The notes: a model not told the origin generated them from the letters alone. 64,000 bases of DNA from an uncultured Desulfosarcina sp. (GCA_963674945.2 CAXXWQ010000003.1:832001-896000), one strand, 5' to 3'. Shown: positions 30,331-50,756, counted from the first letter of the stretch. Numbers and translations: made by a program.

Positions 30331-31094
30331 CAGAAAACCCTTTCAACCATACTTGAGATGTAACTGCTGACCTTCGTCACGAGCTTCTTTGCTTTGATCC
30401 CGGGATGCCACCATGAATTCGGATCGCTATTGTCACTCACCCGGCGGAACGTCGCATATTGATTCTGGGTCGCCTTTTTATAGGTCTTTGCGATCTTGAC
30501 CATTCCTGCATAGGGACTGAATTTCCACTTATAAGCCCCAGGGCGCCCCCCTTTCACCGCGGGCTGAGTCTTGATACCGAATCCGCCGAAATCTCCCGCT
30601 CTTCCTCCCCACACTGTCTTTCCACCCACTCCCTCAACACTCGGCGAAAGCTTCCTGGCCTCCGTATAGATCATACTCGTCTGCTTTCCCTTTGCATTGA
30701 CACCGGTGAACGGCATCGGGGTTCCCACTCGCTTGCCGGTCGTACCGGGAGTGCCATGGCGGAACGGCACCGTATTGTACCTCTTACCGGCCTTGGTCCT
30801 TTTAGCATTGGGTCCAGCCAGAAGCCCCGGTTTCATATCGAAAGGGGCTTTTCCATTTTCGATGGCATTGGGCAACTCACCAACCAAGTGGACGGCCGCC
30901 CAGTTTCCATCCATCTCAACGGGCTGGATGCCGGCGATGTAATCCGCGGCGCTGCCGCCCAGGTTCTGCTGGGCCAGCCGGACCCATTCCGACCGGGCCA
31001 TCTCCGCCAAGGTGTAAACCCGTTCCCGGATCTCGTCTTCATCGACTCCGACGGCCGGCAGATGGCCCGATATGTCTACGCTGATGATCGACAT
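30330..31094 (-). CDS. Neck/tail-completion protein
   Basis: LPNAIENG..PFDMK, VPFRHGTP, YATFRRVSDNSDPNSWWHPG, as in A511/Twort-like neck clusters. Confidence 0.6.
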   Translation of the reverse strand: MSIISVDISGHLPAVGVDEDEIRERVYTLAEMARSEWVRLAQQNLGGSAADYIAGIQPVEMDGNWAAVHLVGELPNAIENGKAPFDMKPGLLAGPNAKRTKAGKRYNTVPFRHGTPGTTGKRVGTPMPFTGVNAKGKQTSMIYTEARKLSPSVEGVGGKTVWGGRAGDFGGFGIKTQPAVKGGRPGAYKWKFSPYAGMVKIAKTYKKATQNQYATFRRVSDNSDPNSWWHPGIKAKKLVTKVSSYISSMVERVF

Positions 31095-32776
31095 TATTCA
31101 GTATGTTCCAGGTTTTTCTTGGGGATCTTTTCAAGGACACCATGCGTATGTCTGACATAGGCATGATCACCATCTGTTGATTCGACAGTACCAACCGTGC
31201 CATGGGTATTCCGACGGGCGTCATTCACTTTGACCTTATGGCCTTTGGCAAAATCACCACGAGCTTTGGCTTCCTTGCGAGCTTTTTCCTCCCGAACTTC
31301 TTGAGAAGATCGTCGCGTTGACGTCTTTTTATCAACCGCCGCACCCTTTTTCTCTTCGGGTTTGTAGATCGTAACCGCCTTGCTCGCGGCATCGAAATAA
31401 GCTACACTTTTGCCATCCTTTTCGAACATAGTTCCGCCAGAAGACCCGGACATCGTTTTATCCCAGATGACCCCGGATCCCTTCAAAACCCTTTCAGCTT
31501 CTTTTGGTGTATGAACATCCCTCACGATCCGATCGCCGGCAGGTTTATCTACAGCTTTTTTCTTTGCTTCCGCAGTTTTCGAAGCAATCCGTTGATGTTT
31601 CGACGAAAAAGTCTTCTTGGCAGTCGAATCTTTTTTATCCCAATCCGGATCTGCGTTTTTGGCCTTATCCAACATCTCTTTGATTTTTTTGCCATCAGAA
31701 AATGGAATCTTTCCAACGTCAAAAATGGGATTTCCGGCCTGTTCTCCCATCCCGTAAAACATCACATATTTTTCGTTGGTATCGACTGAAGCGGTGACGC
31801 CATCTATCTTGTAAGTCGAACCACCCCCGTGGACTTTTCCGGAATAAGCCCACCCCTCTTTTTTAAGAAGGGATTTCAGTGAACTTTCCGTTAATGATTC
31901 CTGATCCGCTTTCGATGTTTTACTGGCCGCATCCTTTGCCGCCTTCCGGCGCTTCACTTCCTCAGTCACCTTGTTCATCAGATCGGCGAAAAGTTTTTTC
32001 CCGGCGGCATCCAGCTTATCCTTGTTCTCGTTTCCCAGCTTAACCAACGTATTGCTATACTCAGTCAACTGTTGATCGGACATCTTTTTGTAATCTTTCA
32101 TGAAACCGTCGAGATTGGAACTTTTGGAGTCTTTCTTTTCAACCGCATTTTTCAAACCAGCAAGAGCAGGAGCAGCATTCTTATCCTTTCCGTCTTTTTT
32201 GTTCTCCGATCCCTTGATATCGGAAGGATCAACAGTATAGCTCCCGGAGCCAACTTTCACATTTACCTTGCCGGGAGCCACATATTCGACCACCCCTTCG
32301 ATCGACTTATCTGACGCCAACGCATCATACTTTCGAGGGTTGGTTATTGTGACTCTATCCCCTGGTTTGAAGGAACCCTCCTTCGAATCCGCCACCTTTG
32401 CGGTGCCCGCATCCTTCGAATCGTGGTGTTCCAAATGATCGGCATGGAAGTCGACAGCATGTTTCTCTCCCTCAATCTTCCCCCGAACGACATCGTATTT
32501 ATCCGAATACCCGGACACCTCCATGGTCTTGCCATGGTGCTTGCTCTTCGGATTGTTGACCTTTACCTTATGGCCTTTATGAAAAGACACGGCGACCTCA
32601 TCCTTATGTCGCGCATCATCGTAATCTTTGATAAATTCCCGGCGACCAGTCTTGGGATTCACTCGAAAATGGGCTTTAATATGAGCCTTTATGAGATCCC
32701 CACCAAGCAACCGACCAAGATCTTTGCAGTCACCAGTATCTATGCTTTTCGCCAACGCTTCATCGTATGCGCCCAT
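31094..32776 (-). CDS. Lys-rich protein with shared N-terminal motif and three KOW/SH3-like repeats
   Basis: DLIKAHIKAHFRVNPKTGRREFIKDYDD; FHKGHKVKVNNP, FKPGDRVTITNP, FAKGHKVKVND. Confidence 0.7.
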   Translation of the reverse strand: MGAYDEALAKSIDTGDCKDLGRLLGGDLIKAHIKAHFRVNPKTGRREFIKDYDDARHKDEVAVSFHKGHKVKVNNPKSKHHGKTMEVSGYSDKYDVVRGKIEGEKHAVDFHADHLEHHDSKDAGTAKVADSKEGSFKPGDRVTITNPRKYDALASDKSIEGVVEYVAPGKVNVKVGSGSYTVDPSDIKGSENKKDGKDKNAAPALAGLKNAVEKKDSKSSNLDGFMKDYKKMSDQQLTEYSNTLVKLGNENKDKLDAAGKKLFADLMNKVTEEVKRRKAAKDAASKTSKADQESLTESSLKSLLKKEGWAYSGKVHGGGSTYKIDGVTASVDTNEKYVMFYGMGEQAGNPIFDVGKIPFSDGKKIKEMLDKAKNADPDWDKKDSTAKKTFSSKHQRIASKTAEAKKKAVDKPAGDRIVRDVHTPKEAERVLKGSGVIWDKTMSGSSGGTMFEKDGKSVAYFDAASKAVTIYKPEEKKGAAVDKKTSTRRSSQEVREEKARKEAKARGDFAKGHKVKVNDARRNTHGTVGTVESTDGDHAYVRHTHGVLEKIPKKNLEHTE

Positions 32777-32801
32777 GATTGTTTTCTCCTATTGATTGAT
32801 C

Positions 32802-33455
32802 CTACATTAAATACTCCAACTTGCAGACTGCCTGAATAGGAAGACGATAATGTTCAGGCGCTGGTTTCCGAAATTTAATATGCGTATCCCTAACGATGTG
32901 AATATGTGATAGAACTCCCCATGATGGATGCATCCGATAAGCAACCGAAAAATATGCACCGGCCACCGGGCTCGTCCCCCCGGTCACCCACTGAATCTTG
33001 CCATTGGAAATCACATAATCCGTAACAGGTGCGTAAACCACACCACCCGGGCCGACCACACGCAAGATGTCAAGCATCGCAAAACGTGCAGTATCTTGCG
33101 TACCGCTACCCCGCGTAAGCAATTCTGAATAGGCGATCACCGATTTATTATTGACAATCCGATCATGGTAACCCAGTTCCACCTCAGCCTTGACCGTCAA
33201 ATTCATTGTTCCGATCAACATCCCGCCGGTGTCCATGAATTGTTTTTCCGTCGTAATACTGGTCATGATGCCCTGGATCTCTTCAGCCCCATAGTACTGC
33301 CATCCCCTATCGCAATAGAGGCAGTTCGGATCAGGATGACCAGTTTGCGAATCCAGACAAGGACACTGTATGGCGTGATAATGGGTAAAAAAATACCCAT
33401 GCTTTTCGATCATCTCATCGAAAGAGCCAACTCTGAAATCAACCCGGCCGGCCAT
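32802..33455 (-). CDS. Head-closure/neck protein
   Basis: CPC...C..C..GW.Y zinc site, GT..LT...LGYHDRI; position after adaptor. Confidence 0.6.
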   Translation of the reverse strand: MAGRVDFRVGSFDEMIEKHGYFFTHYHAIQCPCLDSQTGHPDPNCLYCDRGWQYYGAEEIQGIMTSITTEKQFMDTGGMLIGTMNLTVKAEVELGYHDRIVNNKSVIAYSELLTRGSGTQDTARFAMLDILRVVGPGGVVYAPVTDYVISNGKIQWVTGGTSPVAGAYFSVAYRMHPSWGVLSHIHIVRDTHIKFRKPAPEHYRLPIQAVCKLEYLM

Positions 33456-34192
33456 TATGCCACCGCCAATCGAATACCCTTGTACCGATCTCGAAGATTC
33501 GGCAATTGGGTTTTGATCTGTCGCTCGTATTGACGGATACGGGCACTGTATGCCGAGTTCTCGGCAGACTGGGTTGTTCCAATGCTTTCACTCAACCCGT
33601 CAATGGAAATGCTCTGGGACGCGATACCGGCACCAAGCAGAATATCACCCATAATGTTCATGACACCGATACACGCCTTCATGGCGATGATGTCAACGAT
33701 ATCGCCGGGCACAGCTTCATCTGCAAATCCGGCTGTGTAGTCGACTTTGAACAAATGCGGCATCTGTGTCAGCCGACTGGTGATCAGTGGCAGCAAGACA
33801 CCATTCCCCTGTCCCAACAGCACTTGCGACAGGCTCCCGGTGGTCGGCACCAATTGAAGCTGTCCTGAATTTTTATAGACGTGGATCCAGTCCGCGGGAA
33901 AAGTCATGACCGGCTGGCCCGCATACTCGGCGATCAGACTTTCAACACTGACCACCGGGTAATTGTAAAGCTGGATGTAACAAAATTCTTGATATTCATC
34001 GAGATGATAGTCATGCGTTTCGCTAATGGATGTCGGAGCAATCTTGATATGAAGCTCGTTCTCCAACCAGCTTACGCTTTTGGCAATCCATTTATCGATA
34101 TTTCTCGTCGGATATTCATTTCCATCATCATCGACGAGAGGAATGCCAAAAAGATAGTCTTGTTTTATATCTGCGGCTGTTGGAAGTTTCAT
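33455..34192 (-). CDS. Head-tail adaptor protein
   Basis: YLFGIPL, E.EL.I.I.P, L..YPV.SV, VDYTAGF..VP.DI, SISIDGLSES. Confidence 0.7.
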   Translation of the reverse strand: MKLPTAADIKQDYLFGIPLVDDDGNEYPTRNIDKWIAKSVSWLENELHIKIAPTSISETHDYHLDEYQEFCYIQLYNYPVVSVESLIAEYAGQPVMTFPADWIHVYKNSGQLQLVPTTGSLSQVLLGQGNGVLLPLITSRLTQMPHLFKVDYTAGFADEAVPGDIVDIIAMKACIGVMNIMGDILLGAGIASQSISIDGLSESIGTTQSAENSAYSARIRQYERQIKTQLPNLRDRYKGIRLAVA

Positions 34193-34211
34193 TCAAAATT
34201 GCTCCTTTCCA

Positions 34212-34694
34212 TTAACCGATGATTTTCTTGAACAGTGTCATTAGAAGAGTAAATAACCCACCCCCGATCAAACCATAGAACATGAGAGTGGCAGCCTGTT
34301 TTGCCTGAGTAACGCTTTGCCCTTGAACCTTTTCCGAGACAATCTTCAAATCAACTGCGGCGGCTTTATCAGAAAGACCAGACCTTAATTCGTCATAATT
34401 ACTTTTTAAATCCTTCGATTCAGCCTTTTTAACCAATGCGGCGCGGCAAACTTCCACATCGTTTTTTACAGTAATCAAATCATCTTTTGAACTTTTGGCA
34501 TTCGACACTTTTTCACATCGATCACGACAAGCTTGTTGTTGCGATCGAATTGTTTCGATCACTTTCCATTGTTCAAGGTCTTCTTCGTGAAGATGCGTTA
34601 ACTTCTCCCGGATATAATCCAGGGCCGCAGAAACGGTGCCACGCCATTCAACAAAACGAGTCAGTTCATTGAAATTGGAATTTTTTTCGCTCAT
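34212..34694 (-). CDS. Coiled-coil protein with single C-terminal TM helix (possible holin-like)
   Basis: Heptad-like body plus LMFYGLIGGGLFTLLMTLF-KK. Confidence 0.5.
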   Translation of the reverse strand: MSEKNSNFNELTRFVEWRGTVSAALDYIREKLTHLHEEDLEQWKVIETIRSQQQACRDRCEKVSNAKSSKDDLITVKNDVEVCRAALVKKAESKDLKSNYDELRSGLSDKAAAVDLKIVSEKVQGQSVTQAKQAATLMFYGLIGGGLFTLLMTLFKKIIG

Positions 34695-34697
34695 TTC

Positions 34698-35120
34698 CTA
34701 TTGCATTGCCGGATCTGCTGGAACTGTCACCAAAACAGCCGCGCACTCATCGGTAATTGGAAAAATCGTATGTGACATCATCGGATTGATCGTCATACGG
34801 CGGCCTTTTGTAAGAATCGTTTTTCCATCTTGAGTTTCAATTTCGATGACCCCTTTACTACAGACAATCCATTTCTTTTGAGTATGGGTGACCGCAGGAA
34901 AGGGGTTATTGTCATGACGAGACCGCACAATGAAACCAACTGAGAAACCATCCAAGCCATGTGCCCAGATGTGAAAATCCCAGTCACCAGCCTCATGGAT
35001 ACTTTTGCCCTTGGTGACAACCAATCCAAGGGCAAAAAGAGTATCCAAATAACGAAGTTCGGGTTCAATTTCATTGATACGTTCGATCGCTTTATCCAAC
35101 GGATTTTTGTCCTTATTCAT
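34698..35120 (-). CDS. Cupin-fold protein
   Basis: Start MNKDKNP at 35120; H...WIVCSKG.IEI...L..G....I.P...H.I cupin pattern. Confidence 0.55.
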   Translation of the reverse strand: MNKDKNPLDKAIERINEIEPELRYLDTLFALGLVVTKGKSIHEAGDWDFHIWAHGLDGFSVGFIVRSRHDNNPFPAVTHTQKKWIVCSKGVIEIETQDGKTILTKGRRMTINPMMSHTIFPITDECAAVLVTVPADPAMQ

Positions 35121-35487
35121 CGTTCGACGCCTTTTTTGGACGACCTTTCCGCCTGGTGATTGCTTTACCATTCTCAGTAATTGGATTACGGGTTCCCTCG
35201 ACTTTCTCCGGAGTAATTTCCTCAGCTCCTTCAGGACCGATTCCCTCGACTTTCTCCGGAGTAGGGATAACCACCTCCAGCTCCGTTTGTTCAGGGGTGG
35301 GAATGGTTGCCTCCGGCTCTTTCTTTTCCTCAAAAAAATCAAGAACGGTAAAACCATTCAATTTGCGAACATTTTGTGCAACCTCAGTCGGAACTGTGGC
35401 TACCCCATTTTCATCGTAATCGACGATATAAGAGCCAATTACGGCACCCTTGATTCCCTTGAAGGCCTCATTTTGGATTCTTGCCAT
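35113..35487 (-). CDS. Hypothetical head-region protein
   Basis: 124 aa, AAGGGG RBS, TPEKVEG repeated twice, basic RRKGRPKK tail. Confidence 0.6.
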   Translation of the reverse strand: MARIQNEAFKGIKGAVIGSYIVDYDENGVATVPTEVAQNVRKLNGFTVLDFFEEKKEPEATIPTPEQTELEVVIPTPEKVEGIGPEGAEEITPEKVEGTRNPITENGKAITRRKGRPKKASNDE

Positions 35488-35536
35488 AACATTCCCCTTT
35501 TCAACTATTTTATTGAATCATTGCTTGCCCACCGGA

Positions 35537-36118: not shown

Positions 36119-36137
36119 GATTTTCCTCCTACTTTTA

Positions 36138-36177: not shown

Positions 36178-36210
36178 CGGGTTAAAACCGGTTATTCACT
36201 CCGGGGCATA

Positions 36211-37650
36211 TTAAATGAGATCGACTTTCTCACTGCCTCCGACATTGATGAACTGTACCCATTTCTTGGGCGCATAGATGATGAAGGTCAAATAACAGAG
36301 AATCATCCATCGATATGCGGGAGCCAAGACAGCCAGATCCATTTTCATCAATGGAGCAAGCTGTTTGACAGCAAGAACCTGAGAACTCAACTCGCCAACG
36401 AAAGCCTTGGTGGTGCCGGCCATATTCTTGCCGGTATCATCCCAGGTCGTGGTGCCACTGCCAGCCTGACTGGTTGCTCGAACACGGGCGACCAACATTT
36501 TGACCGAACCACCGACTTTGGTCTTGTAGATATTGAAATACTCGGGTTCAATGGTAACCGAACCCGCATTTGTGATGGTGAACGGAATGTGTTTTGCCAC
36601 ATCATCGGAACCAACGGTAACCGGGGAACCGATGGCCACGGCGGCCGATTCACCGTACCGGTTAACGGCGGAAACGGCGTAATTGTAAACACCGGCACCG
36701 CCATGGGTTGTCCAGACACCATCGGTACCCGTCATCGATCCGGCCGCAATGGAGGCCGGGGGCGTCGGTGCTTTACCACTGGTTGCCGAAGCCGGCGCGA
36801 TTTTCCCAGCGTTCAAGAACACATCGGGATTCAGATTCACCTTACCGAAAGGCGTATTCACGTCGGGAATATTGGCGCCGACGGTATAACCACCCTGTCC
36901 GGTCGGCAGGGGCACACGCTCTTTGGGCAACATGGTGTCACAGAAGGCCTGATGGGCCGCAAAACTCAAGAATACATCCGTGGGATTCCCGTAGTTACTG
37001 GCGACCATCTGGGCGGCCAAGGAGAACGCACCTTCGGACAAAGCGGCGCCCTTGAGGTCGATGACATTGCCGGAATCGATCTGTTTCTCGATGCCATTGA
37101 ATTCCACACCCTCACGATGGGTGGAATCGGTGGCCGCTCCCAGATAACACATGTCGGCGTCGCCGTTGAGCAGACCCCACTCCAGATTTTTGAGAATCCA
37201 GAGAATACCGTTGGTGTTTTCCTGGGCCGTCACATCCCCGATATTGGTTTTTACCAAAGTCATGGGATGGGAAATGCTCCTGGTCGTACCCAGAAATTTC
37301 ACCAGGGAGGTCTGTCGGTTATAGGTGGAATCCACGGTTTCGGGCAGGGTTCCTTCGGGAAGAAAGGCTCCGCTCTCATCACCGACCGCCGACAACTGGT
37401 TAAACTCTTCGACGGTGGAGTACGCAGGCAGCTTGGGCACTCTTTGCCAGAAGGCACAGTGTTTGGCCTGATGGGTCAGAACCTTCAAAGAGGCTTCCAG
37501 GGACTCGACACGCAATGCCCCACCACCGGAAACGGGCGGATTGTCATAGCCGGCGGTCAGAGCTTTGTTGAGATCCTCGACTTCCCGCATGCTGGTGAAT
37601 CCCATGGTATGGATATCTTCATACTGGGCAAGGGTGATAATATCGTTCAT
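36211..37650 (-). CDS. Major capsid protein (A511/Twort-like, HK97 fold)
   Basis: KALTAGY..GGGALRVESLE, AYSTVEEF, GAFLPEG, LVKFLG, LEWGL..GD, EFNGI, LAPLMKMDLA. Confidence 0.88.
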   Translation of the reverse strand: MNDIITLAQYEDIHTMGFTSMREVEDLNKALTAGYDNPPVSGGGALRVESLEASLKVLTHQAKHCAFWQRVPKLPAYSTVEEFNQLSAVGDESGAFLPEGTLPETVDSTYNRQTSLVKFLGTTRSISHPMTLVKTNIGDVTAQENTNGILWILKNLEWGLLNGDADMCYLGAATDSTHREGVEFNGIEKQIDSGNVIDLKGAALSEGAFSLAAQMVASNYGNPTDVFLSFAAHQAFCDTMLPKERVPLPTGQGGYTVGANIPDVNTPFGKVNLNPDVFLNAGKIAPASATSGKAPTPPASIAAGSMTGTDGVWTTHGGAGVYNYAVSAVNRYGESAAVAIGSPVTVGSDDVAKHIPFTITNAGSVTIEPEYFNIYKTKVGGSVKMLVARVRATSQAGSGTTTWDDTGKNMAGTTKAFVGELSSQVLAVKQLAPLMKMDLAVLAPAYRWMILCYLTFIIYAPKKWVQFINVGGSEKVDLI

Positions 37651-37707: not shown

Positions 37708-38505
37708 TTACTCGCTGGTGAGTTTTTTGATCAAATGCGGCGAAAGTGAACCACCGGACTCGAATCTGACGATATCCATGGATGTCACAGCCGGATCACC
37801 CCTCTCAAACATCGATGTCAGGGACTTGAGGATTTGATCTTTGCTCATCTCTTTTTTTTCACCCTCACCACCCTCGAAAGACTTCTGTAAAACTGTGGTT
37901 TTAGACTTCGGAGTCCGAAGAGGTTGCTTGGCCAATTCATTGTTCAAGGCTTCCACGGACTTGCGAAGGTCTTCGGTCTGACGATCCGTTCGATCCGCTA
38001 CGGACTGAAAAGACTTCTTCAATGTATCGACGATGGAAAGGGCAATATTCTGATTAGCCTCGGTGGCCTTGAACAGACTCTTCTCGATGGCGTCAAGCCT
38101 CTCAGTTTGCGCCTGACGGATTCCATCGATGGCCTCGCCGACTTTATCGACAAGGGCGGCCAAGAAATCACTCACTTCGACGGCTTTTTGGATATCCTCA
38201 TTGTCGTTAATGAGATCTTCCGTGAAAGGACTGTCTTCGGAACCGGCTTCGGCGCTTTGACTTTTCTCGACACCTTCATCGTCGTTTCCATCTTCATCTT
38301 CATCTTCATCGCCATCGCCGCTTTTTTCCAGGTCGCCGCCGCAGCCCTTGTCCAAATCCTCGATGCCACCATCGGTTTGACTCTTTTCCAAATCCTCGTT
38401 CTCTCCATCACCCGATGGAATCAGTCCTTTGGCGAGTTTTTCAAGCTCATCCAAAGCCGCGAAGAAAGAATTTTCGGGGATGGCTTTTTCTTTTTGTTCA
38501 AGCAT
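37708..38505 (-). CDS. Capsid scaffolding protein
   Basis: Acidic coiled-coil protein between protease and capsid genes; many (L/I/V)xK(S/A/G) motifs; AAGGAGG RBS. Confidence 0.7.
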   Translation of the reverse strand: MLEQKEKAIPENSFFAALDELEKLAKGLIPSGDGENEDLEKSQTDGGIEDLDKGCGGDLEKSGDGDEDEDEDGNDDEGVEKSQSAEAGSEDSPFTEDLINDNEDIQKAVEVSDFLAALVDKVGEAIDGIRQAQTERLDAIEKSLFKATEANQNIALSIVDTLKKSFQSVADRTDRQTEDLRKSVEALNNELAKQPLRTPKSKTTVLQKSFEGGEGEKKEMSKDQILKSLTSMFERGDPAVTSMDIVRFESGGSLSPHLIKKLTSE

Positions 38506-38521
38506 GATTACCTCCTTGTAA

Positions 38522-39415
38522 TTATGATTTGACACTTGCCAAAAATTTCTGCATGACAGAATTGAAAACCATTTGTACCAACCGTCTGGCTTTTTCCTCG
38601 GAATAGCCTCTTTCTTTCATCAGACGTTCAATGGCTTCTTTTTCAGTGATTTCGCCGCCGGCTCCAGGCATATCCAAATTGGTAAGCCCTTCTTCGATAG
38701 ATTCTTTACGAAGCGCAGACCCTCCGCTTTGCGGTGGATTCTGATTTCCGGCTTCCATCATTTTGGCCAGATCTCCAGACATTTTTTCCGGACCACGAGA
38801 AAAAATCTTTCTGAAAGCCGATAATATGACGTTCTCCATCCGCTCCCAGTACCCCAAAGGTTCGGGCTCCTTGGGTGTCTCTTCCTCATCTTCAACGTAA
38901 CCGTTGACTTCAATGTCGTTGGAAATACTTTTGATCACATCAAGGAAAGTATCGGGGTGCATCGGCTCGGCGGTGATGGCGATATCTTTGATCCAGCTTC
39001 TCTTGACGATCTTGCCGTCTCTTTTGAGTGTTTTTCCTTCGACACTGAGACCAAGCCGACGATCACTGCCAGATTTTTGCAGAGCATCGGCAAGTTCAAC
39101 GATACCTTGGGCGCGAGGCGTGTCGAACAGATATCCTCTAACCCTCAAACCTTCAGGGGTAACCGCAGCTTCTGTAGGCACACCAACTTTCCCGTCGGTC
39201 GTCTTGGAATGGTTGTCGTTGAAATAACCCCGGGAGAGAAGATACGAAAGATCCATCCCAGCCAAAATCACCGTCTCACCAACAAGGTCAGGGGACTCGA
39301 CGGAAGCGACACCATCGATCCAGGTTTTTCCGTCCTTTCCCTTTTTCAGATCGAGCGGAACATGAAACCGGAACGATCCGTCATCGTGAATGCCTAATGG
39401 TATTTGTGATTCCAT
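38522..39415 (-). CDS. Prohead protease
   Basis: IDGVAS.ESPDLVGE, GYFNDNH (His), LGLSVEG (Ser), IAITAEP. Confidence 0.85.
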   Translation of the reverse strand: MESQIPLGIHDDGSFRFHVPLDLKKGKDGKTWIDGVASVESPDLVGETVILAGMDLSYLLSRGYFNDNHSKTTDGKVGVPTEAAVTPEGLRVRGYLFDTPRAQGIVELADALQKSGSDRRLGLSVEGKTLKRDGKIVKRSWIKDIAITAEPMHPDTFLDVIKSISNDIEVNGYVEDEEETPKEPEPLGYWERMENVILSAFRKIFSRGPEKMSGDLAKMMEAGNQNPPQSGGSALRKESIEEGLTNLDMPGAGGEITEKEAIERLMKERGYSEEKARRLVQMVFNSVMQKFLASVKS

Positions 39416-40242: not shown

Positions 40243-41082
40243 TTATTTACCCTTGGGCTTTTTGAAAACGATTCGACCATCGTTATCGAACTCATGAAGT
40301 TTTGGATTGAAATATGCCACTTCACAGAAACAGTGAGGATGAAGGGGTGGAAGCCCCGGTGCCCGCCGGATCTCCGCAGCCGTCCGGTCGACGTTGTTCC
40401 TGGCGGCTAAATCGGCAAGTTTGAATACTCGTGGTTTTCCCCTCAACAGAAAAGCCGATCGACAGAGATCACAACAATCCGGGTGCGGGCGGACAATCAC
40501 GCAGGACTCAGCCCCGAACTGTTTTGTAATGCCATGGGCGATGCCATTTGTCCGGGCGCCATGCAATTCAGTATTGACGATCCGGTGCCAATCCCTTTGG
40601 ACATCTTCGGTCGCCCGCCGTAGCAAAGCGATCATCTCTCCCCGGGCTTTCCTCTCCCGGGCCGCATTCGACATTGTTTCCTGAATAATCCCCCGCATGG
40701 CCGTTTCCTTGGCCGCATCCTGAACGATCCTCAACGTAGTCGATTCGATCCGGTTCCCCAGGCCCTGGCAATAAAGGGCAGCCGAATCATTCAACCATTT
40801 GATTGAAGCCTTTTCGATATCGCTCAATGGCAGCCGGCGAATGGTATCCTTGATCATGTCAAAAGACGCCCCGGCCAGCCTCGGGTCCAGTGAACTGAGC
40901 ACACCGAATAAATAGGCATCAGCGACGGCGCTATCCGGTACGGATGGATCGATAATACCTGCCGCCTGGAGTTTGCGAATATCGATTCCAGATGGAGGGC
41001 TGCCGGTAAATTGATAGATGGCGATCCCCACATGCTCCCGGATGATTCGGGCGATTTCTTCGATCTGTTCTTTATTCAGCAT
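40243..41082 (-). CDS. MuF/SPP1 gp7-like head morphogenesis protein
   Basis: RIVNTELHGARTNG, CCDLC, PPLHPHCFC. Confidence 0.8.
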   Translation of the reverse strand: MLNKEQIEEIARIIREHVGIAIYQFTGSPPSGIDIRKLQAAGIIDPSVPDSAVADAYLFGVLSSLDPRLAGASFDMIKDTIRRLPLSDIEKASIKWLNDSAALYCQGLGNRIESTTLRIVQDAAKETAMRGIIQETMSNAARERKARGEMIALLRRATEDVQRDWHRIVNTELHGARTNGIAHGITKQFGAESCVIVRPHPDCCDLCRSAFLLRGKPRVFKLADLAARNNVDRTAAEIRRAPGLPPLHPHCFCEVAYFNPKLHEFDNDGRIVFKKPKGK

Positions 41083-41345: not shown

Positions 41346-41561
41346 TCACTTGCGAATTACATCTTCGATTCGCCCCATCATTTTCTTGAGCTGGATATTG
41401 AACCCGACAGTAACACGGGAAACAAACGCCTCCATGGCCGGTTGCCTGAATTTACGCCCAGGGCGCTGGATCTTTGTTCGGACACTGCCCAAAGCCTTTT
41501 CGAGCGTTTCTTCCAATTCATAATCGGCAAGGTTATATTCGATCATCACTGGCTTTTGCAT
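41346..41561 (-). CDS. Hypothetical protein
   Basis: Probable start MQKPVM at 41561 next to upstream stop; contains LEKAL. Confidence 0.5.
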   Translation of the reverse strand: MQKPVMIEYNLADYELEETLEKALGSVRTKIQRPGRKFRQPAMEAFVSRVTVGFNIQLKKMMGRIEDVIRK

Positions 41562-42144: not shown

Positions 42145-44226
42145 TTAAATATCCACCGTTTTCCTTTCCCGGGCAAGGTTTCTGGAAGCCGCTTGCCTCT
42201 GAGCCTCTTTTTCTCTTTCCTCATTGGCGATCGCCGCTTTGATCGGCTTTTCGACATCGAACCGCGAAGGCAGATTTAAAGCCGCAGCCCGCTTCCCGGA
42301 AAAGACCGATGCAGGCAACCTTTCTTTAAACCAAGCCGTCAACGCCTTCGATCCGGTTTCCCAAAGCCTTCGGGGAAGCATCGTATGATATTTGGACGGA
42401 ACCGCTGAACCGGCCAAAATCCGATCGCCGATTTGCATAATCGTCGGAGCGTCCTTGGGCGCTATTCCCAACCTTATCATTTGGGCCGCATATTCCGCCC
42501 GATGATCCGGTTTCTTCATTTCCGTTCGCACTTCCTTTATCACTCTCTCATCCTTCGGATGAACCGGTGCGAGCTTTCTTTTCCGCTCCATCGCGCTTCT
42601 CAGCGAAACATCCTTTTTCAATGTTGCTTTGAAATCGGGATAACTCGACGCCTCGGCCTTGAACGCTTCCTTGATTCGCTCCAATTCCTTCGGTAACAGC
42701 ACTGTTTCAATAGTGGAGGTCGCATACGGTTTCATGGTCTTCGGATTGTAAACATAACCGGCCAGCTCTTCGGCTGCCTGCCTTCGCGTAAGCGTTGCTT
42801 GAAATACGCCGATACCGGTCCATCGTTTCATAACATCGAGAATCTTTTGATCTTCATAAAGCCAACTCATCAAATCCGCTTCATCGGCAAGACCTTCCTC
42901 CAAGAGTATAGCCTCTTCCTTCGAAACAAATGGCGAAGCGATGATGTCATTCGAATCACCGGCTAAGAACTCATCGACCGCCGTCTTGTCAATAGACGAT
43001 AACGGACTCTTTTTATCCGTATCGTCCGGTAAAAAATCATCACGAACGGTAGACATCTCCCTTTCATGAATCTTTACCGCTTCACTCCGGGCGTACGAAC
43101 GTGCATATTGCCGCAACCGCTCTTCAATCCCGCTTCCCTCGCCCAACAAAGGTTCGTAGCTGGCCACAGCCTTAACCAAAGCATCAATGAAAGTCGCAGG
43201 TGTGACATCCCCTTCAGTAACGCTGGGATATTTCATAGTTGTCGCGGACACTGTTTTTTCGAGCATCGGCCAATGTTCAGCCAGAATCCGCCGGGCAATA
43301 TCTTCATCTTCCTTGGTTGCTTGTCGGTAACCGCCGGCGGCGTACTTGAAATGGCCTTTCCGATGCAATTCCCCAGTTTCCAGCTCGATACTTAACGGTT
43401 TACCAACAGCTTTAGGATTATGTAACCGTGGAACCCGCTCATATTTCTGATTTTTTAGTGTGGATTGAAGAAGACTGTCTCCGATGGTTTTCGTAATAGT
43501 TGTCTTTATCCCCGGAACATGAAAATCAACCTCATATTCCATTTTGGTGCCAACCTTTCGCGTAGATTTCACAACAAAAACCCTACCATCCGGGCGTCGA
43601 TATGTTCCTCCGACCGTTAGTTTAGTCTTTTCCTCTGCAACCCGCTCCTGGATGGTTTTCTTCCGCTCCTTGTCTTTGTAATACATTTCGTAATCGCCAC
43701 GATCGACCAGAGTGGTTTCACCCTTTGCATTGGTCACCTCGACAGTTTTACGTTCGACCACTTTCTTTGTAACATCATTGGCCCGATGAACCAGTTCGAT
43801 GTGGTTGACATTCATGGTCTTGGCTTCATGCTTCCCGGTCTTTGGATTGAGAAAAGCAACCGACACCCTCGGCGAAGGACCCGCAATAGACCCGCGGAAA
43901 ACCCCCTCACGCCCCTTTTCGCTGCCCCAGGTTATCTTCACTTTGTCGCCTTCAGAAAACCGCACCATATCCTTGCTATCAATTACATGATCCCGTTTAA
44001 TATCCTCGTGATGATCCTTTTCCTCTCCTTCACGATGATGGACTACCCGAGTCAATTTCGGCTTTTTCCCGGCATCCGGCTTCACCCAATAGATCCGTTC
44101 GACCCCATCCTTTCCAACGATCTTTTTCGGGACCAGATTAGTAAAATACCCGTGTTTGAACCCGGCCTTCTCCAAAAGCAGTTCATCCACTGACACGACT
44201 ACAAAATTCGACGCATCAAGGAACAT
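42145..44226 (-). CDS. Multidomain protein: LEKA leader, KOW-like repeat, sigma-70-like regions 2 and 4
   Basis: LLEKAG; FSEGDKVKITWG..KGREG; ALVKAVASYEP....LRQYAR; VMKRWTGIG....LTRRQAAEEL...ELERIK. Confidence 0.55.
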   Translation of the reverse strand: MFLDASNFVVVSVDELLLEKAGFKHGYFTNLVPKKIVGKDGVERIYWVKPDAGKKPKLTRVVHHREGEEKDHHEDIKRDHVIDSKDMVRFSEGDKVKITWGSEKGREGVFRGSIAGPSPRVSVAFLNPKTGKHEAKTMNVNHIELVHRANDVTKKVVERKTVEVTNAKGETTLVDRGDYEMYYKDKERKKTIQERVAEEKTKLTVGGTYRRPDGRVFVVKSTRKVGTKMEYEVDFHVPGIKTTITKTIGDSLLQSTLKNQKYERVPRLHNPKAVGKPLSIELETGELHRKGHFKYAAGGYRQATKEDEDIARRILAEHWPMLEKTVSATTMKYPSVTEGDVTPATFIDALVKAVASYEPLLGEGSGIEERLRQYARSYARSEAVKIHEREMSTVRDDFLPDDTDKKSPLSSIDKTAVDEFLAGDSNDIIASPFVSKEEAILLEEGLADEADLMSWLYEDQKILDVMKRWTGIGVFQATLTRRQAAEELAGYVYNPKTMKPYATSTIETVLLPKELERIKEAFKAEASSYPDFKATLKKDVSLRSAMERKRKLAPVHPKDERVIKEVRTEMKKPDHRAEYAAQMIRLGIAPKDAPTIMQIGDRILAGSAVPSKYHTMLPRRLWETGSKALTAWFKERLPASVFSGKRAAALNLPSRFDVEKPIKAAIANEEREKEAQRQAASRNLARERKTVDI

Positions 44227-44246: not shown

Positions 44247-44258
44247 GTAATTAATTAC
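44247..44258 (-). promoter_or_regulatory. GTAATTAATTAC palindrome, copy 6
   Basis: Exact copy, extended to 16-bp palindrome AAGTAATTAATTACTT; upstream of GGAGG RBS of the CDS starting at 44226. Confidence 0.75.
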
Positions 44259-45021
44259 TTGGATTTATAGGTAAAATTAACTGTTTTTCTTTCAATTCAC
44301 CAGTATCAGCACTGGGTGATCGTGACTTCAGATCGTCAATGGCATCAAGCACCTCTTTCGGGTCCCGGCCGGAAGCCTTCACATCCGCCTGGTGGAGAGC
44401 AAGCAATGGTTCGAAATGTTCATGTGCCATGAATTTTCGCGCATCTCTTTCGCCCGATCGGAGAAACTTGGTCCGCAGGTTCCCATGGTGGAGAACCAGG
44501 TGCCTGATCTCCTTTTTATCATCACGGGAGAAACCCAGGCGATCCAAAACCTTTCCCACCATTTTGTAGCCGGCGTACTCATGGCCATCGAAGACAATAC
44601 CGCGATCGGGATCTGCCTTTTGGGTTTCCGCCTTTCCGATGTCATGCAGCAAAGCCGCCCACCGCACGTTATCGCTGGCATCCGCCGGCAAATGTTTGAT
44701 GACCTGCATCGTATGATCAAACGCATCCCGGTAAGGGTGATGGGCGCCCTGCTCCACCCCGTACAAGGTGACCACCTCGGGCAGAGAATTCATGAAGCCG
44801 CCGGTCTTGATCTTCGTCTCCAGCTCTTTCAACCCATCCGGGCTTTGAAGCAGTTTCGTCACGGTTTCCCGGATCTTCACCATCCCCTTGTCAGGTGCAA
44901 CGAAATGACGAACCTTTTGTTTCGATGAATGAGAACCCCTTTTATCCCGCTTGTCATCGTGCTCTTTGACGACCTGGAGCTTTCCCTGCCGATATCGAGT
45001 GTATTGCTTAACGTGGGACAT
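44251..45021 (-). CDS. HD-domain phosphohydrolase (CCA-adding-enzyme C-terminal type) with basic N-terminal motif
   Basis: LPE...L.GVEQ..HHP..DAFDHT, WAALLHDIGK, FDGHEYAG, LVLHH, ADVKAS; no nucleotidyltransferase domain. Confidence 0.85.
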   Translation of the reverse strand: MSHVKQYTRYRQGKLQVVKEHDDKRDKRGSHSSKQKVRHFVAPDKGMVKIRETVTKLLQSPDGLKELETKIKTGGFMNSLPEVVTLYGVEQGAHHPYRDAFDHTMQVIKHLPADASDNVRWAALLHDIGKAETQKADPDRGIVFDGHEYAGYKMVGKVLDRLGFSRDDKKEIRHLVLHHGNLRTKFLRSGERDARKFMAHEHFEPLLALHQADVKASGRDPKEVLDAIDDLKSRSPSADTGELKEKQLILPINPSN

Positions 45022-45030
45022 AAACCTCCG

Positions 45031-45324
45031 CTACTTCTTGACGATGAATTTCCTCGATCGGCGTTCGTCTTCCATGGGAATTGCCTTTCGGCGTTTTTCG
45101 ACAAATTCCCATGGACTCGAAATGGTAACCATGTCACCGTCTTTGACCGTCGAATCCTCGTACTGGCACTCAACGCCTTGATTTTGAATCGTACCGGCAA
45201 AAAGAGGACAGGCAGCACAGTAATTTTTCTGATGTGTTTCATCCAAAACGGCAACCTGCCTGAGATATTCACAATAGATTTGATTATTCAAATCGGGATA
45301 GTTCAAATGCAGAACGTTTTTCAT
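45031..45324 (-). CDS. Small Cys-containing hypothetical protein
   Basis: 97 aa, GGGGG RBS, directly downstream of PARP-like gene. Confidence 0.6.
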   Translation of the reverse strand: MKNVLHLNYPDLNNQIYCEYLRQVAVLDETHQKNYCAACPLFAGTIQNQGVECQYEDSTVKDGDMVTISSPWEFVEKRRKAIPMEDERRSRKFIVKK

Positions 45325-45852
45325 GCTTTCCCCCTTACGGCCGACTGGTGTTACCGAATCGATCCGTCAATTCCAGATCAACCCAATACATCGGAATGAC
45401 GCCATTCGGATCTTTGACAACATGTTCATCATTCACCACGGCGCTGCTGTATCCTGGGACCATTTTTCCTTTTGGAGCAAAAATCGAATCTGCCTTGGTG
45501 ATATCTGCTATTTCATGCCTTTTACTGTTCGACGCACCAGTGGATTTATCGTGCACCTTGCCCAAGGAAATTTTATTGATCAAAAAGACCCCGCGGGTCC
45601 CGGGTTGCCTGGTCACATGACAATCCCCTTTGAGATATTGCGCAGATTTGGAACTCATGTCTGTGACATACACACCCCCGCCAAGCATCCCACCGCTTGA
45701 AGCCCGGTACGCAGACTTCACGATACCGGCTGCAGCAGCAAAATTGGTGGAATGGTAACCGAACATGATATTGTCTCGATCTTTTTCAATTCTCTTGAAT
45801 TTATCGTACTGATCCATGCCTCCAATCTGATAAATGCCATGAACCTTAAAAT

Positions 45853-48308
45853 CAGGAAACTTGATTTCCTAATTGTTGCATATGGCAAGCAAAACATAAT
45901 GTAAGTGGTTGAAAAACAGAAAGATAGGAGTCTGAATCCAGCAGGCCGGTAAGGTATTGCAACCGGAAAATGAACATGGCACCTTTAACCTTATTATCTT
46001 GGCGGATAAATGAAAGGAAAAGGATGCCATGCCTCAACAGATACTACCACTTATTCCTCGGGGTGCAAGACAAATCAACGGGCTTGTCAGTGTATTTCGT
46101 GACGATACGACCTGGACCTATTTTCTATCGACCGTTCCGATTTATTCTCACAGACAAGGCGATCAACGAATGTTTCGGATGATAACAGCCCAACTGGTTG
46201 AATCCGGAGCTTGCCGCCAGATCGATATCCAAAACACATTCGGCGTATCCAAGAGCAATGTCATCCGATCCGTGAACAAACTCAGGTCCGGCGGCGCCGA
46301 GGCATTTTTCGTTCAGCGGCGGGGACGACGCGGCGGCAAGGTTTTCAAACCTGAGGTGCTTGAACAAGCCCAACGTTTACTGGATCAAGGGTGCTCGAAA
46401 AAAGATGCCGCCCTGGAACTTGGCATTAAATACGATACGTTTCGCAAAGCTATAGATGATGGTCGGTTAATCGAATCAAGGATTGGTGAACCGTGTCTAA
46501 CCAAATCAGATCGGGACATGGTCGACATGGCTGCTGCCGATGGTATGGGGACGGCTTGCAACCGAGTCGGGGAACGCATATTGGCATCATTGGGCAAAAT
46601 GGTTGGTGCGCCGGTTCGTTTTGACAGATGCCTGGACGTTCCCAAAGCAGGCGTTCTTTGTGCGATACCGTCATTGGTGGCAAACGGGTTGTTTACCGGC
46701 GCAAAACAGTTCCTCGGCCAAGTCAAAGGCTATTACACGATCTTTCATGTCTTGTTGCTGCTTTCGTTTATGGCCTTATGCAGGATCAAGACGACAGAAA
46801 AAATACGAGGCCATGCTCCGGGAGAATTTGGTAAGTTATTGGGCTTGGATCGTGCACCGGAGGTTCGCTGTTTGCGTTACAAGATGGATGCGTTGAGCGC
46901 AGACCACGGCGCGGAAAAGTGGGCCGCATACCTCGGTAAATACTGGATGGAACAGGCGCCCGAATCGGTTGGCGCGCTTTATGTTGACGGGCATGTACGT
47001 GTTTATCATGGAAAATTGACCCGACTACCGCGCCGCTACGTGTCCCGGGAACGATTGTGCATGAGGGGCATTACCGACTATTGGGTTAACGATGCGATTG
47101 GCCGACCTTTTTTTGTCGTCGAAAAGCAGATCGATCCTGGATTATTGGCGGTTTTAAGAGACGATATCGTTCCCCGGTTGTTGCAAGACGTTCCGAATCA
47201 ACCCGGTTTGCAGCAACTACAAGAGAACCCATGTTTATGCCGGTTCGTTCTTGTTTTCGACAGGGAAGGATATAGTCCCGCATTCTTCAAGGAAATGTGG
47301 GATCGCCATCGAATCGGCTGCATGACGTATCATAAGCATCCTGGTGAATCATGGCCGGAGCATTGGTTCACCGAGTATGAAGTTGCGATGCCAAACAAAG
47401 AGGTGGTGAAGATGCGGCTTTGCGAAATGGGTAGTTTGGTGGGATCTGGTAAGGGTGCAACATGGATGCGACAAGTGCGAAAACTGACCGATTCCGGACA
47501 CCAGACCAGCGTAATCAGCACCGCTTTCGATTTGCCGCATACTCAATTGGCAGCACGCATGTTCAGCCGGTGGTGTCAGGAAAACTTTTTCAACTATATG
47601 ATGCAACATTTTGATATCGATGTGCTTTTAGATTATGGTGTCGTTGAATTTCCTGATACCGAACGGGTAATCAACCCCGTTTGGCGGCAATTGAATCAAT
47701 CCCGTAATTCGTTGCAGAACAAGCTACGATATCGTCGTGCCTGTTTTGCCGAGATGACCATTCACCCTGAAAATGAAGACAAACCGGTAAAGTTTAAGAA
47801 GTGGATAGAGAAAAAGGCCGAGCTGTTAGAAGAAATCGAAAAGATGGAGTATCAACTCAGCGAGTTGAAAGAAAAACGAAAACAGACAAGTAAACACATC
47901 ACGTGGGGAGAACTTGAAGCAAAAGATAAATTTTTACGTTTACAACCGGGCAGAAAACGCCTGATGGACACGGTTCGTATGATTGCATATCGTGCAGAGA
48001 CGGCAATGGTTGGGTTGCTCACGGGTCCGACGGTAAACTCGTCGGATGCACGGAGTCTTCTCCAGACACTGTTCCAGACCGAAGGCGATGTACTGCCCGA
48101 TATTGAAAATCAGCAATTGAATATACGATTGCACGGCGCTTCGTTCCCAGCGGCCAATCGGGCTCTTTGCCAACTGTTTGCGCATCTGAACAGTGCGCAG
48201 GTAAAATACCCCGGTACCGAGCTGCAAATGATATTCGAACTAAATGGCTGCAGCACCTCAAATCATGCCGGAGGTGTCACATAGTTTTCCCGGAGATGCA
48301 GTGTTCTG
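45853..48308 (+). mobile_element. Insertion sequence (2456 bp, family not assigned)
   Basis: Imperfect IRs CAGGAAACTTGATTTCC / CAGAACACTGCATCTCC; 5-bp TSD AAAAT at 45848-45852 and 48309-48313. Confidence 0.88.
46029..48284 (+). CDS. Large DDE transposase with N-terminal HTHs
   Basis: 751 aa; YVDGH, VFDREGY, RW.QENFF motifs; fills the IS. Confidence 0.85.
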   Translation: MPQQILPLIPRGARQINGLVSVFRDDTTWTYFLSTVPIYSHRQGDQRMFRMITAQLVESGACRQIDIQNTFGVSKSNVIRSVNKLRSGGAEAFFVQRRGRRGGKVFKPEVLEQAQRLLDQGCSKKDAALELGIKYDTFRKAIDDGRLIESRIGEPCLTKSDRDMVDMAAADGMGTACNRVGERILASLGKMVGAPVRFDRCLDVPKAGVLCAIPSLVANGLFTGAKQFLGQVKGYYTIFHVLLLLSFMALCRIKTTEKIRGHAPGEFGKLLGLDRAPEVRCLRYKMDALSADHGAEKWAAYLGKYWMEQAPESVGALYVDGHVRVYHGKLTRLPRRYVSRERLCMRGITDYWVNDAIGRPFFVVEKQIDPGLLAVLRDDIVPRLLQDVPNQPGLQQLQENPCLCRFVLVFDREGYSPAFFKEMWDRHRIGCMTYHKHPGESWPEHWFTEYEVAMPNKEVVKMRLCEMGSLVGSGKGATWMRQVRKLTDSGHQTSVISTAFDLPHTQLAARMFSRWCQENFFNYMMQHFDIDVLLDYGVVEFPDTERVINPVWRQLNQSRNSLQNKLRYRRACFAEMTIHPENEDKPVKFKKWIEKKAELLEEIEKMEYQLSELKEKRKQTSKHITWGELEAKDKFLRLQPGRKRLMDTVRMIAYRAETAMVGLLTGPTVNSSDARSLLQTLFQTEGDVLPDIENQQLNIRLHGASFPAANRALCQLFAHLNSAQVKYPGTELQMIFELNGCSTSNHAGGVT

Positions 48309-50756
48309 AAAATAGAATCCACCATGGGCCTTTTTATCCCACCGATTTTCAATCTTCTTCATGATGAAATCGTGAGTCTTTTGGTCAACCGATTTAAAAG
48401 TGCACCCCAGATTATTTGGCGGCGGCTCCCCTTGATTTTTGGCAGGAGCATTTACATCCACCCCTTTTGCCTTGAGCTTTTTCTGCTTCTCGACCTCTTT
48501 CCAATATCTCTTGGACATCTGATCGACGACGCCATCATAGGAGCCAGATTTTCTAGCGATCTTCATGCCGATAGCCCGGGGACCTTCCTTATCCATCAAC
48601 CCTTTGGGAAAAACTCGAGCCGTGAATTCACGGTCGTAATTTTTCGATATTCTCGTAGAGCCCTCTTTGGCAACATAATTTGCCGCAAACTGATCCCGCA
48701 TCATGTCATTGGCCTGAATCTTTTCATCGACCTTATCACTCATGGATTCAGTCACTTTTGTTGCCAGCGAAATATCAAAAATTTCAGTATGAGTTCTCCA
48801 ATGATTTGTCGGATCCGGTTTAGAACCATCTGCAAGCAGATATTGAACCAAATCATGATGTTCACTTATCCAATAGCTGCTACGATTGAACATGTTTCTT
48901 ATTATACTGTTTCTGTTATAATGAGACCCAAAATTACCCACCACTTCTTTGACAATACTGCTCTTTAACTCCAAATGATTCATGTACGAATCGGTATTGT
49001 AAATTTTTGCTCCTGGTTTTGTTTTTGTCGACGGATTATCGGCGATAAATTTTTCATAGCCGGTAAGAAAATCCCTTAATGTCATCTGGTCAGCCGGCTT
49101 GCCAAAGTCTGGGCCGGCCATGGCGTGCATCAAAGTTAAACATGAATCATGATCAAACCTGGGCGCATGATCCAGTAAAGAGTAATGCTTCAAAGTATTT
49201 GAGACATTACTGTCGAGATGAACATGATCCTCCATTTGTTCAGAGAAGCCTCCGGTGACCTTTTTGGAAATACGTTTATATGTATATTCAAGCACATGAT
49301 TGATCACATCAAAAGCCTTATGCTCTCGACCCTTTTCCGCCATACTCTTCAAATCAGTTTGGATATCTTCGATATGTGGCTTGACGTCTTTGTCATAATC
49401 GTATCCGGCCTTTTCCCAATCATCCTTGCTGTAGAACGCAAAACCAACCAGGTTACTTGAAACCTCCGGATCATTTATCGACCAATCATTAGGCGGCCGA
49501 TAAGCCAAAATTTTGAATGAACGCCGGCTGTACCTTGAATTCAAATCAGAATTCACCCATTGCGGAACCGTATAACCAGTTCGAGTTTTAATCCCATACC
49601 AGCTCCCATTGCTTTTGTTGTAACCTTGATAACTTGACCGCCCACTGCTGCCCCTTTTGGCCGTAATCAATTGAAGATTCTTTTCGATGTACTCGGCAGC
49701 AGCAGGATCCAGCGGAACCATGCCAGTGACCTTGGCTATAGATCGCTGTTTCTCGGTTGAATATTTCCAAGCCTCCCTTTTATCGTGAGGAAAATCCTGG
49801 GCCGTTTTGATAGGTTCAACCTTTTTCGGCTCCGGTTTCGCATCGGGTTTGATATCGACTGCAGGTGTATTGCCTGGGGTCAACGACGGCTGCCCGGACA
49901 AATTGACCAATGCCTTCGGACTTGCATCGGTATAAGTTCCATCATCCAGCTTCATTCGAACGACATCGTATTTGTCGGAATAGGAAGTGACCACTCCCTC
50001 TTTATCATGATGCTTGCTGCGAGGATTGCTGATGCGAACCTTGTCACCCGGATCGAAAGTGGTTTTGGGAGGTGCCGCCGGAGCCGGTTTACTATCCGGA
50101 GCTGCACTTTTGGCTTTTTTCGGTGTTTGGTTCTGGGCCCGCTTAATCAATTCGGCTTCGATCTTCTTGGCAACATCCCTTTTGTCTTGGCTGTTTGCCC
50201 ACTCCAGAAGTGCACGCATGAAATTGTAAAGCTTCTGGTCGCCCTTGATTTTCCCGATCCGGGCTTCCAATTGCTTGGCATCCATTCCCTCGACACGTTG
50301 CTTTTCATGCTTCATGTCATTATGAACGAAAGACACCCCAACCAGGCCAAGGGCCAGCTTTGCACCATCCAGATCCGTCACCCCGGGCGCCGGCGTAGCG
50401 GCGGGCGCCGTCGGCGCTGCCGCCGGTGTGGGAGCCGCACCCGTATGGGGTTCAAGTAAATGAGGCTCGAAATCGGCCGTATGACTCTTCCCGGGGATCT
50501 CCAGTCGGATGACATCGTATTTGTCAGAGTAATGCTTAACCTTCATCACCTGGTCATGGAATTTGCTCCGAGGATTATTCACTCGGACCATATGCCCCTG
50601 GTGAAACTCGGCATCCGCCTTGCCATGGATCTTCGAATCATAATCTTTGATATGAATCAGTTTTCCGGTTTTCGGATCTCTTCGGAAATGAGATTTCACA
50701 TGGGCTTTTTCAAGATCGATGGTGATGTAATGGCGCATACCCCCCCCTCCATCATT

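Follow-up and report, generated by a model that had tools for sequence, protein, structure and literature searches.

Outside T4 and P1, little is known of how phages select the proteins that travel in their heads, and a prophage in the genome of an uncultured Desulfosarcina sp. raises this question in a concrete form. The 64,000-nucleotide stretch analysed here (GCA_963674945.2, CAXXWQ010000003.1:832001-896000; hereafter the window, numbered from its first letter) comes from a 2.6-Mb contig in a bacterial genome of 7.1 Mb. Between about 12,600 and 61,700 its minus strand encodes the morphogenesis module of a large prophage, in which portal, protease, scaffold, major capsid protein, adaptor and sheath were recognised by Pfam and PHROG. 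Three of its proteins, a PARP-like ADP-ribosyltransferase, a protein of the neck region and an HD-domain phosphohydrolase, carry the same short basic element at their N-termini. An earlier note had read this element as a modular leader, made up of a protease site, a basic hairpin and a KOW/SH3-like nucleic-acid-binding unit, that loads diverse effectors into the head in the manner of the T4 capsid-targeting sequence (CTS). We lean towards a related but different reading, in which the proteins would be head-packaged effectors, cut after a hydrophobic-x-K motif by the prohead protease, with the basic hairpin tying the resulting units to DNA for injection.

A site and a hairpin on unrelated proteins

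The strings that the earlier note had quoted from the starts of the three proteins were all found on the minus strand, where the cargo and head genes described below and their parts also lie; an insertion sequence (IS) among them is on the plus strand. Residues 8-98 of the PARP-like open reading frame (ORF; 48258-50738) match residues 27-118 of the neck-region protein (31094-32776) with 54% identity over 92 amino acids (tblastn E 6e-24 against the 7.1-Mb genome), which upholds the claim of a shared N-terminus. The order in both is hydrophobic-x-K|A, a 26-residue basic His hairpin and a KOW barrel. The two hairpins start 18,019 bp apart, and the leaders show no meaningful DNA similarity (best 15/16 nt), which, set beside 54% protein identity, argues against a recent duplication.

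In the PARP-like protein, the predicted prohead-protease site L-E-K|A (50703-50714), a motif shared with the scaffold and the capsid protein, is followed by the hairpin (residues 13-38, 50625-50702; 40 bits with the hairpin hidden Markov model, HMM) and by a KOW/SH3-type barrel (residues 45-97, 50448-50606; recognised by model, Foldseek and HMM). After a helical module comes a second KOW barrel (residues 228-266, 49893-50057; tblastn 45% over 56 amino acids, HMM 55 bits), and the recurrence of this unit noted earlier is thereby confirmed. The neck-region protein begins with a conserved helical leader holding two predicted sites, L-A-K|S (32744-32755) and L-I-K|A (32684-32695), both identified as sequence motifs; hairpin (32606-32683; 44 bits) and KOW barrel (32426-32584; by HMM) follow, and the variable C-terminus contains a weak KOW-like match (residues 509-541, 11.7 bits).

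The HD protein (44251-45021; Pfam HD E 3.5e-10) carries the hairpin tag without a protease site (44938-45021). It starts MSHVKQYTR, and M-[SA]-HV opens the protein in the window and in its four orthologues (L001, L002, L004 and L008), that is, in 5/5. Removal of Met before Ser or Ala is well established and would here yield the terminus that a K|[SA] cut is expected to leave, which makes the HD protein, judged by its sequence, a naturally 'pre-cut' variant. Read-through from the upstream gene, whose stop is in frame at 4/5 loci, was considered and set aside: a GGAGG resembling a ribosome-binding site stands just 5' of the ATG in the window and in L008, and K[SA] is absent from the junction. 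When all 12,721 ORFs of at least 120 amino acids in the genome were searched with a lysine-free hairpin HMM at 10 bits, only the PARP-like, neck-region and HD proteins were found.

A structural model of the 98-residue leader (mean predicted local distance difference test score 82) has the hairpin as strands E13-18 and E25-27, ahead of a five-stranded barrel for which Foldseek returned weak matches to NusG, NdhS, PsaE and Spt5 KOW (E 0.007-0.05) and none at E<=0.001 in PDB or BFVD. The NdhS match has a root-mean-square deviation (rmsd) of 1.8 over 56 residues and a probability of 1.0, but an E of 0.008. The top match, 4l0j (a TraI translocation-signal domain, E 0.007, rmsd 11.8), was not counted as evidence.

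Outside this genome the element is widespread. The HMM and the catalogue of attached domains that the earlier note had suggested were both made, and a 40-column profile run against 1.84 billion cluster representatives gave 355 clusters at E<=0.001. From the 155 proteins in hand, seven were dropped as false (P0036, P0089, P0119, P0126, P0145, P0148 and P0152; in four the sequence is VFRRDP/YRVDP and the leading H-V-K is missing, while the lysine-free HMM did not match the other three at 12 bits). In the 148 that were counted, the lysine-free HMM found 269 hairpins, 247 of them directly preceded by K[SA] against a background of 2%, with the same dipeptide before 105 of 121 secondary copies. Two residues ahead of the lysine, 253 have L, I, M, F or V. 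Two to five copies occur in 87 proteins, internal positions account for 146 copies, and a unit has a median length of 271 residues. KOW follows only 44 of the 269 hairpins, which removes it from the general address in which the earlier note had included it. Pfam KOW also matches in the tagged relatives P0108, P0058 and P0040, and the barrel is best described as an optional, putatively nucleic-acid-binding addition in this clade.

The hairpins lie at the joints between domains. Pfam was scanned in 126 of the 148 proteins, and the joint test used the 63 with a non-KOW domain, excluding weak single matches in P0124, P0043 and P0083; one of 88 internal copies fell inside a Pfam domain against 15.4 expected (P 4e-7). 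Sites without a hairpin are likewise in excess outside domains (221 vs 142) and not inside them (29 vs 35). The attached domains are PARP, ART-PolyVal (ART, ADP-ribosyltransferase), VIP2-like ART, InPase, SNF2 and Strawberry-notch helicases, ParB, ddrB-ParB, LPD1, SAM lyase, zeta kinase, topoisomerase IB, JAB, Acb1, DarA_C, Nudix, HD and several DUFs, some of them combined in multi-enzyme relatives (P0023, with InPase, ART-PolyVal and SAM lyase; P0067). The view of the leader as a module placed on unrelated effectors thus stands. More than half of the 126 scanned proteins have no usable Pfam domain or a DUF only. The hairpin itself is described by no Pfam, PHROG or NCBIfam family, two weak PHROG matches having covered KOW only; ESM Atlas gave no usable match, a result that carries no weight.

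Two DNA patterns lacking the lysine were applied to viral contigs, where the first had K[SAT] before 4/4 matches and the second K[SA] before 22/23, in 12 distinct contexts. In GTDB genomes the second pattern (H-[VI]-K-x-Y-T-R-x-D-G-T) matched 46 times, two matches being of the lysine type and 44 belonging to a cellular family. In 0/45 cellular copies does K[SA] stand ahead of the His, where V or I is found instead, and these copies mostly end H-x-R-S vs H-[DE]-[DT]-[KSN] in phages. A head or terminase gene lies in the fetched flank of 25/28 lysine-type loci vs 0/45 cellular-type loci. The association with phage head clusters presumed in the earlier note therefore applies to the lysine-preceded copies and fails for the hairpin core: the core is not phage-specific, while the pair of site and hairpin is phage-specific in these samples. 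A further pattern, K[SA]HVKxHTR, matched three GTDB stretches, none of which was confirmed. The cellular family itself (L039-L085, 45 loci) reads V-HVKGYTRKDGTYVxPHTRSAP and is often C-terminal in proteins of Chryseobacterium, Pedobacter and Flavobacterium, or placed directly behind a signal-peptide-like start; three tested members had no Pfam match.

Among cultured phages, the tag occurs in the 90-95-kb phages fHe-Yen8-01, Dolphis (P. putida), ECML-606-1 (E. coli), PHB04 and Touem01, on Nudix, HD-type and uncharacterised proteins. fHe-Yen8-01 has a tagged Nudix protein, gp131 (leader MLKA), and a site-led ART, gp129, annotated 'particle associated protein', and its scaffold-position and capsid proteins bear the same sites. 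No paper was found behind this label, which we count as weak evidence for presence in the virion.

The predicted cut and its substrates

The same motif marks the head itself. The presumed cutter is the prohead (head maturation) protease (38522-39415; phrog_1028 E 8e-43). Its neighbour, the acidic scaffold (37708-38535; phrog_15087), contains 10 hydrophobic-x-K-[SA] motifs in 275 amino acids, where the frequency in 729 long host ORFs would predict 0.6 (P 1e-9); four related scaffolds contain 7, 8, 11 and 10. In the SPO1/Twort-type major capsid protein (36211-37650; phrog_752; 44-49% identity to its SP-10 and SPO1 counterparts) the motif sits near the N-terminus as L-N-K29|A30 (37561-37572), aligned with VVK24|S25 of PDB 5lii. 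The Herelleviridae-type capsid chain of PDB 9row, the same protein as in 5lii, comprises 439 residues, 463 minus 24, and by alignment offset starts at residue 25, the serine of that site. This alignment fits a predicted cut after lysine by this protease family, and the identification of the protease site proposed earlier gains from the crowding of the motif in the scaffold and its place in the capsid protein. For A511, a cut between Lys-23 and Ser-24 is reported; a literature search that fell short of most subscription papers found none stating a lysine cut in Herelleviridae.

All cargo proteins of the window are basic (isoelectric point, pI, 9.0-9.4) and the scaffold is acidic (pI 4.4), and charge could therefore act as an additional driver of loading. 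Each cargo gene of the window has a single recognised enzyme domain by Pfam. The name 'PARP-like' used in the earlier note is right for the gene and not for the ORF: 48258-50738 has no PARP domain by Pfam, and the catalytic part (45335-45851; Pfam PARP E 7.7e-10), with H, Y and E at what we take to be the triad positions, lies beyond a Transposase_29 IS on the plus strand (45852-48310; Pfam; 2,459 bp) that splits the gene. The N-terminal part ends at 48311 (48311-50738), from where the ORF runs on into the IS, which has 27 further copies in the genome at >99.6%. Joined with an X at the break, the split gene is 52.8% identical over 1000 columns to the intact homologue P0003, one of four of 965-990 amino acids (the others being P0002, P0006 and P0007). 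Among contigs of four runs belonging to a single study, no joint free of the IS was listed.

Two further cargo genes have the site without the His hairpin. The InPase gene (50793-51575; Pfam InPase E 3e-41), which begins just beyond the range named in the earlier note, has a site-type leader, IIDLEKKA, and its relatives have an LEK|A leader. The KOW and sigma-region-2-like protein (42145-44226) has an LEK|A site (44164-44175), a second type of hairpin (44077-44136; LVP..GKDG..RI.WV.P, with invariant columns in 5/5 relatives), a KOW barrel (43786-43965) and sigma-2-like helices (43030-43413), the latter two recognised from the model. The earlier note had seen in this protein a unit related to the leader KOW; the fold bears this out (Z 8.8 to NusG, rmsd 1.5, 56 aligned) and the sequence does not, as no relation to the leader KOW is detectable (0.6 bits) and NPKTGK is a turn inside the barrel. 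By VIA, the helices reach Z 7.4 to 7lq4, the RsiG-WhiG complex (rmsd 2.8, 101 aligned), and Z 6.8 to sigmaE region 2 (rmsd 3.5, 98 aligned), both within the range that VIA calls common. The best host match (E 0.0025) is presumably a sigma-28-type factor, none of the 5/5 family members has a Pfam sigma match, and Foldseek with the 693-residue model returned KOW matches only. Conserved in 5/5 loci behind a predicted site, this protein is, on the strength of the models, a candidate virion-delivered transcription factor. At other loci, further unrelated N-terminal types stand behind a K[SA] site in the same clusters.

Retained tag, removable address or generic binding module

Our preferred reading would work as follows. 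Late-made precursors would enter the prohead, where the protease would cut after lysine and thereby both shorten leaders and divide multi-enzyme precursors into individual tagged units. The hairpin, kept as the new N-terminus, and not the discarded leader would be the working tag; it would hold the freed unit on the packaged DNA until injection, and the units would act early in the next host by ADP-ribosylation, nucleotide breakdown, anti-restriction and possibly transcription. We favour the hairpin for this role since some leaders measure no more than 2-4 residues, since the HD protein would reach the same terminus by Met removal, and since internal units keep their hairpins, which would be free to decay if an N-terminal address were all that was needed. 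A narrower version, that of a retained and transferable load-and-eject tag of temperate phages with SPO1/Twort heads, working only at a free [SA]-H-V terminus, made by the protease or by Met removal, with precursors chopped inside the capsid into anti-defence units that each bear a tag and a cargo that includes the KOW-sigma-like transcription factor, is put forward as a tentative proposal, possible rather than probable.

Several observations weigh against our preferred reading. The search profile contained K[SA], so that the frequencies of 92% and 87% for all and for secondary copies are inflated, the counts free of this bias are low, and phages that are related do not count as independent cases. 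A look-alike hairpin is common in cellular proteins away from any phage context, so that the hairpin alone is no capsid address. Directly before the hairpin, 22 of 269 copies have no K[SA]: seven follow KG, four have a site up to three residues earlier and 11 have none, and three copies in one protein follow L-S. A scan for ATG-started copies gave four matches, two HD orthologues and two by chance, to which P0121 can be added; being confined to these, the M-[SA]-HV start may represent a single event. The start of the 9row chain may reflect the choice of its depositors. In fHe-Yen8-01 the 'particle associated' label stands on 52/136 genes by hand count, the primase included. Finally, the InPase and the sigma-like protein manage without the His hairpin. 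The protein with L-S is P0132, in which the three hairpins (residues 13, 138 and 395) flank two ART domains; it possibly derives from a phage whose protease has another specificity, although a search for its phage context gave ART-domain matches only. For another protein, P0122, no match was found in GenBank phages.

The T4 system is the obvious comparison. As with the T4 CTS, the cargo is unrelated and includes an ADP-ribosyltransferase, and a short N-terminal element holds the motif of the scaffold and the capsid protein. The T4 gp21-type protease is glutamate-specific, in contrast to the hydrophobic-x-K|[SA] motif, phrog_1028 protease and SPO1/Twort-type head seen here. The CTS of 10-20 residues, present on IPI, IPII, IPIII and Alt, precedes the cut and is removed by gp21, and removable propeptides are used by both T4 and SPN3US (PMC9026906, PMC7411985). 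Here, by contrast, the conserved 26 residues follow the predicted cut, would be kept and recur internally, and the T4 logic does not carry over in the form given in the earlier note. The T4 address was established by experiment, whereas the present one is predicted from sequence.

A T4-style address could nevertheless lie upstream, with the stretch before the lysine binding the prohead core, the hairpin a passenger DNA-binding element, and the HD protein either unpackaged or riding on a partner. The T4 and SPN3US propeptides provide a precedent, and in favour are also, within our data, the hairpin-free leaders of the InPase and the sigma-like protein, the strong conservation of the neck-region leader (about 30 residues, 21 orthologues) and some hydrophobic excess at -12 to -8 of N-terminal copies (0.28-0.46 vs 0.21), an excess absent upstream of internal copies. 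Yet the stretch before the site ranges from 2 to at least 40 residues, with leaders of 2, 4 and 6 residues and MLKA in gp131 of fHe-Yen8-01; leaders of different cargo genes have only hydrophobic-x-K in common; and the HD protein has no leader in 5/5. We consider such an address unlikely.

Alternatively, nothing may be packaged at all, the hairpin being a small generic binding module shared with cells, K[SA] no more than a part of its phage version, and the proteins acting late in the producing cell. The 44/46 cellular GTDB matches, several with signal-peptide-like starts by eye, speak for this. Cellular copies, however, never have K[SA] (0/45) and end differently, the K[SA] motif marks the scaffold and capsid protein and is found in front of further N-termini, unrelated to the hairpin, within these clusters, and the HD protein drops exactly the part before [SA], which together render this explanation rather improbable. 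That the shared N-termini are remnants of duplication or recombination among accessory genes, without a targeting role, would suit a prophage riddled with IS elements and relatives in which KOW and helical modules move between PARP, InPase and neck-region genes (P0017, L008, L017), yet protein identity of 54% without DNA similarity and a 26-residue pattern kept across 355 clusters and at domain joints leave it hardly credible.

The retained-tag reading can be placed beside three other groups of packaged proteins. Polyvalent proteins, with InPase, ART-PolyVal, LPD1, ddrB-ParB, SNF2 and 2H domains, are encoded near portal and MuF, have been predicted to be packaged and injected, and have been likened to polyproteins (PMC5512222, PMC9503650); the 2017 paper proposes that embedded MPTase domains release their units (PMC5512222). 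Many tagged relatives share this domain repertoire, with at least two disparate domains per chain and a place near head genes, whereas most cargo genes of the window encode a single enzyme. In the available text, neither paper mentions a prohead-protease site or a hairpin tag at such joints, a point on which the FTP supplements of the 2017 paper may bear. In P1, a reporter is brought into the head by the 30 N-terminal residues of DarB, no consensus is found among Dar N-termini and the capsid protein is cut at E120|S121 (PMC9024508); packaged anti-restriction cargo is common to both systems, and the clear shared tag and the lysine site set the present one apart. The neck-region gene, with its constant N-terminus and variable C-terminal effector in a head cluster, resembles MuF-fused effectors; unlike in these, the constant part is a leader of 30-120 residues, hairpin and KOW, and the window's MuF-like gene is separate. 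MuF-fused effectors were reportedly described by Jamet et al. in 2017. They are also treated, for temperate phages, in PMC9503650. No published description of the tag was found in a search that excluded most subscription papers, and the accessible parts of PMC3601020, PMC3170307 and PMC9503643 contain nothing on it.

If the retained-tag reading is true, a five-residue site and a 26-residue tag would predict the injected proteome from sequence across a large group of myophages, most of them uncultured, and would explain how polyvalent proteins are split into working units. Tagged domains without a known family would join Acb1 and SAM lyase as candidates for early anti-defence factors. The tag is present in cultured P. 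putida and E. coli phages and could offer a new handle for loading proteins into capsids.

The surrounding prophage

The window's cluster sits between portal and protease. The portal gene (59807-61444; Pfam Phage_portal, phrog_12) forms the upstream end of the head cluster, and a gene at 40243-41082, without a match in Pfam, PHROG or NCBIfam, has homologues adjoining portal genes in related loci and a Cys/His motif from which we assume it to be a MuF-like head morphogenesis gene. A small ORF at 41346-41546 (about 66 amino acids from MIEYNL) contains an HNL/YNL...LEKAL helix that opens the MuF-like protein in L031, L032 and L034; it looks as if the N-terminus of MuF has been split off in the window. 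In L032, two tags are found on the MuF-like chain. The protease, at residues ~215-245, contains a copy of the capsid N-terminal arm (LAK..AG.Q.PP.SGGSALR.ES.E vs LNKALTAG..NPPVSGGGALRVESLE in the capsid protein), as it does in L004 and L007, and this copy may dock the protease into the shell lattice.

The 21 neck-region orthologues all retain the hairpin, KOW and a helical leader of ~30 residues in which the two sites lie, and beyond these only 19/210 pairs show downstream similarity. What is left of the gene in genome G076 (L007:8357-8646) is the 16 initial codons plus a DUF7717-like tail, arranged around a direct repeat of 10 bp, a remnant that, from its sequence, apparently arose by internal deletion. 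Because of this remnant and the polymorphic C-terminus, the gene looks accessory rather than structural.

The same order of genes recurs in G076 and at four IMG/VR loci, of which two are near-identical to each other; the capsid protein is present in only 1/100 related genomes, and no RNA holder is listed. Transposase-like insertions lie at 158-1597, 10747-12147, 24578-26874 and 45852-48310 in the window and at 917002, 920116 and 936172 of the same contig (G000 C3) outside it, and one of these insertions is between tail genes; with so many in and around it, the prophage may be decaying. Terminase-like and replication-like genes, judged by eye, lie farther on outside the window. At G000 C3:908000-912400, also outside the window, a run of genes stands beside ParB-like genes and the terminase; by eye we take it to resemble 7-deazaguanine synthesis (QueC, QueD, QueE, QueF and FolE-like), which suggests DNA modification.

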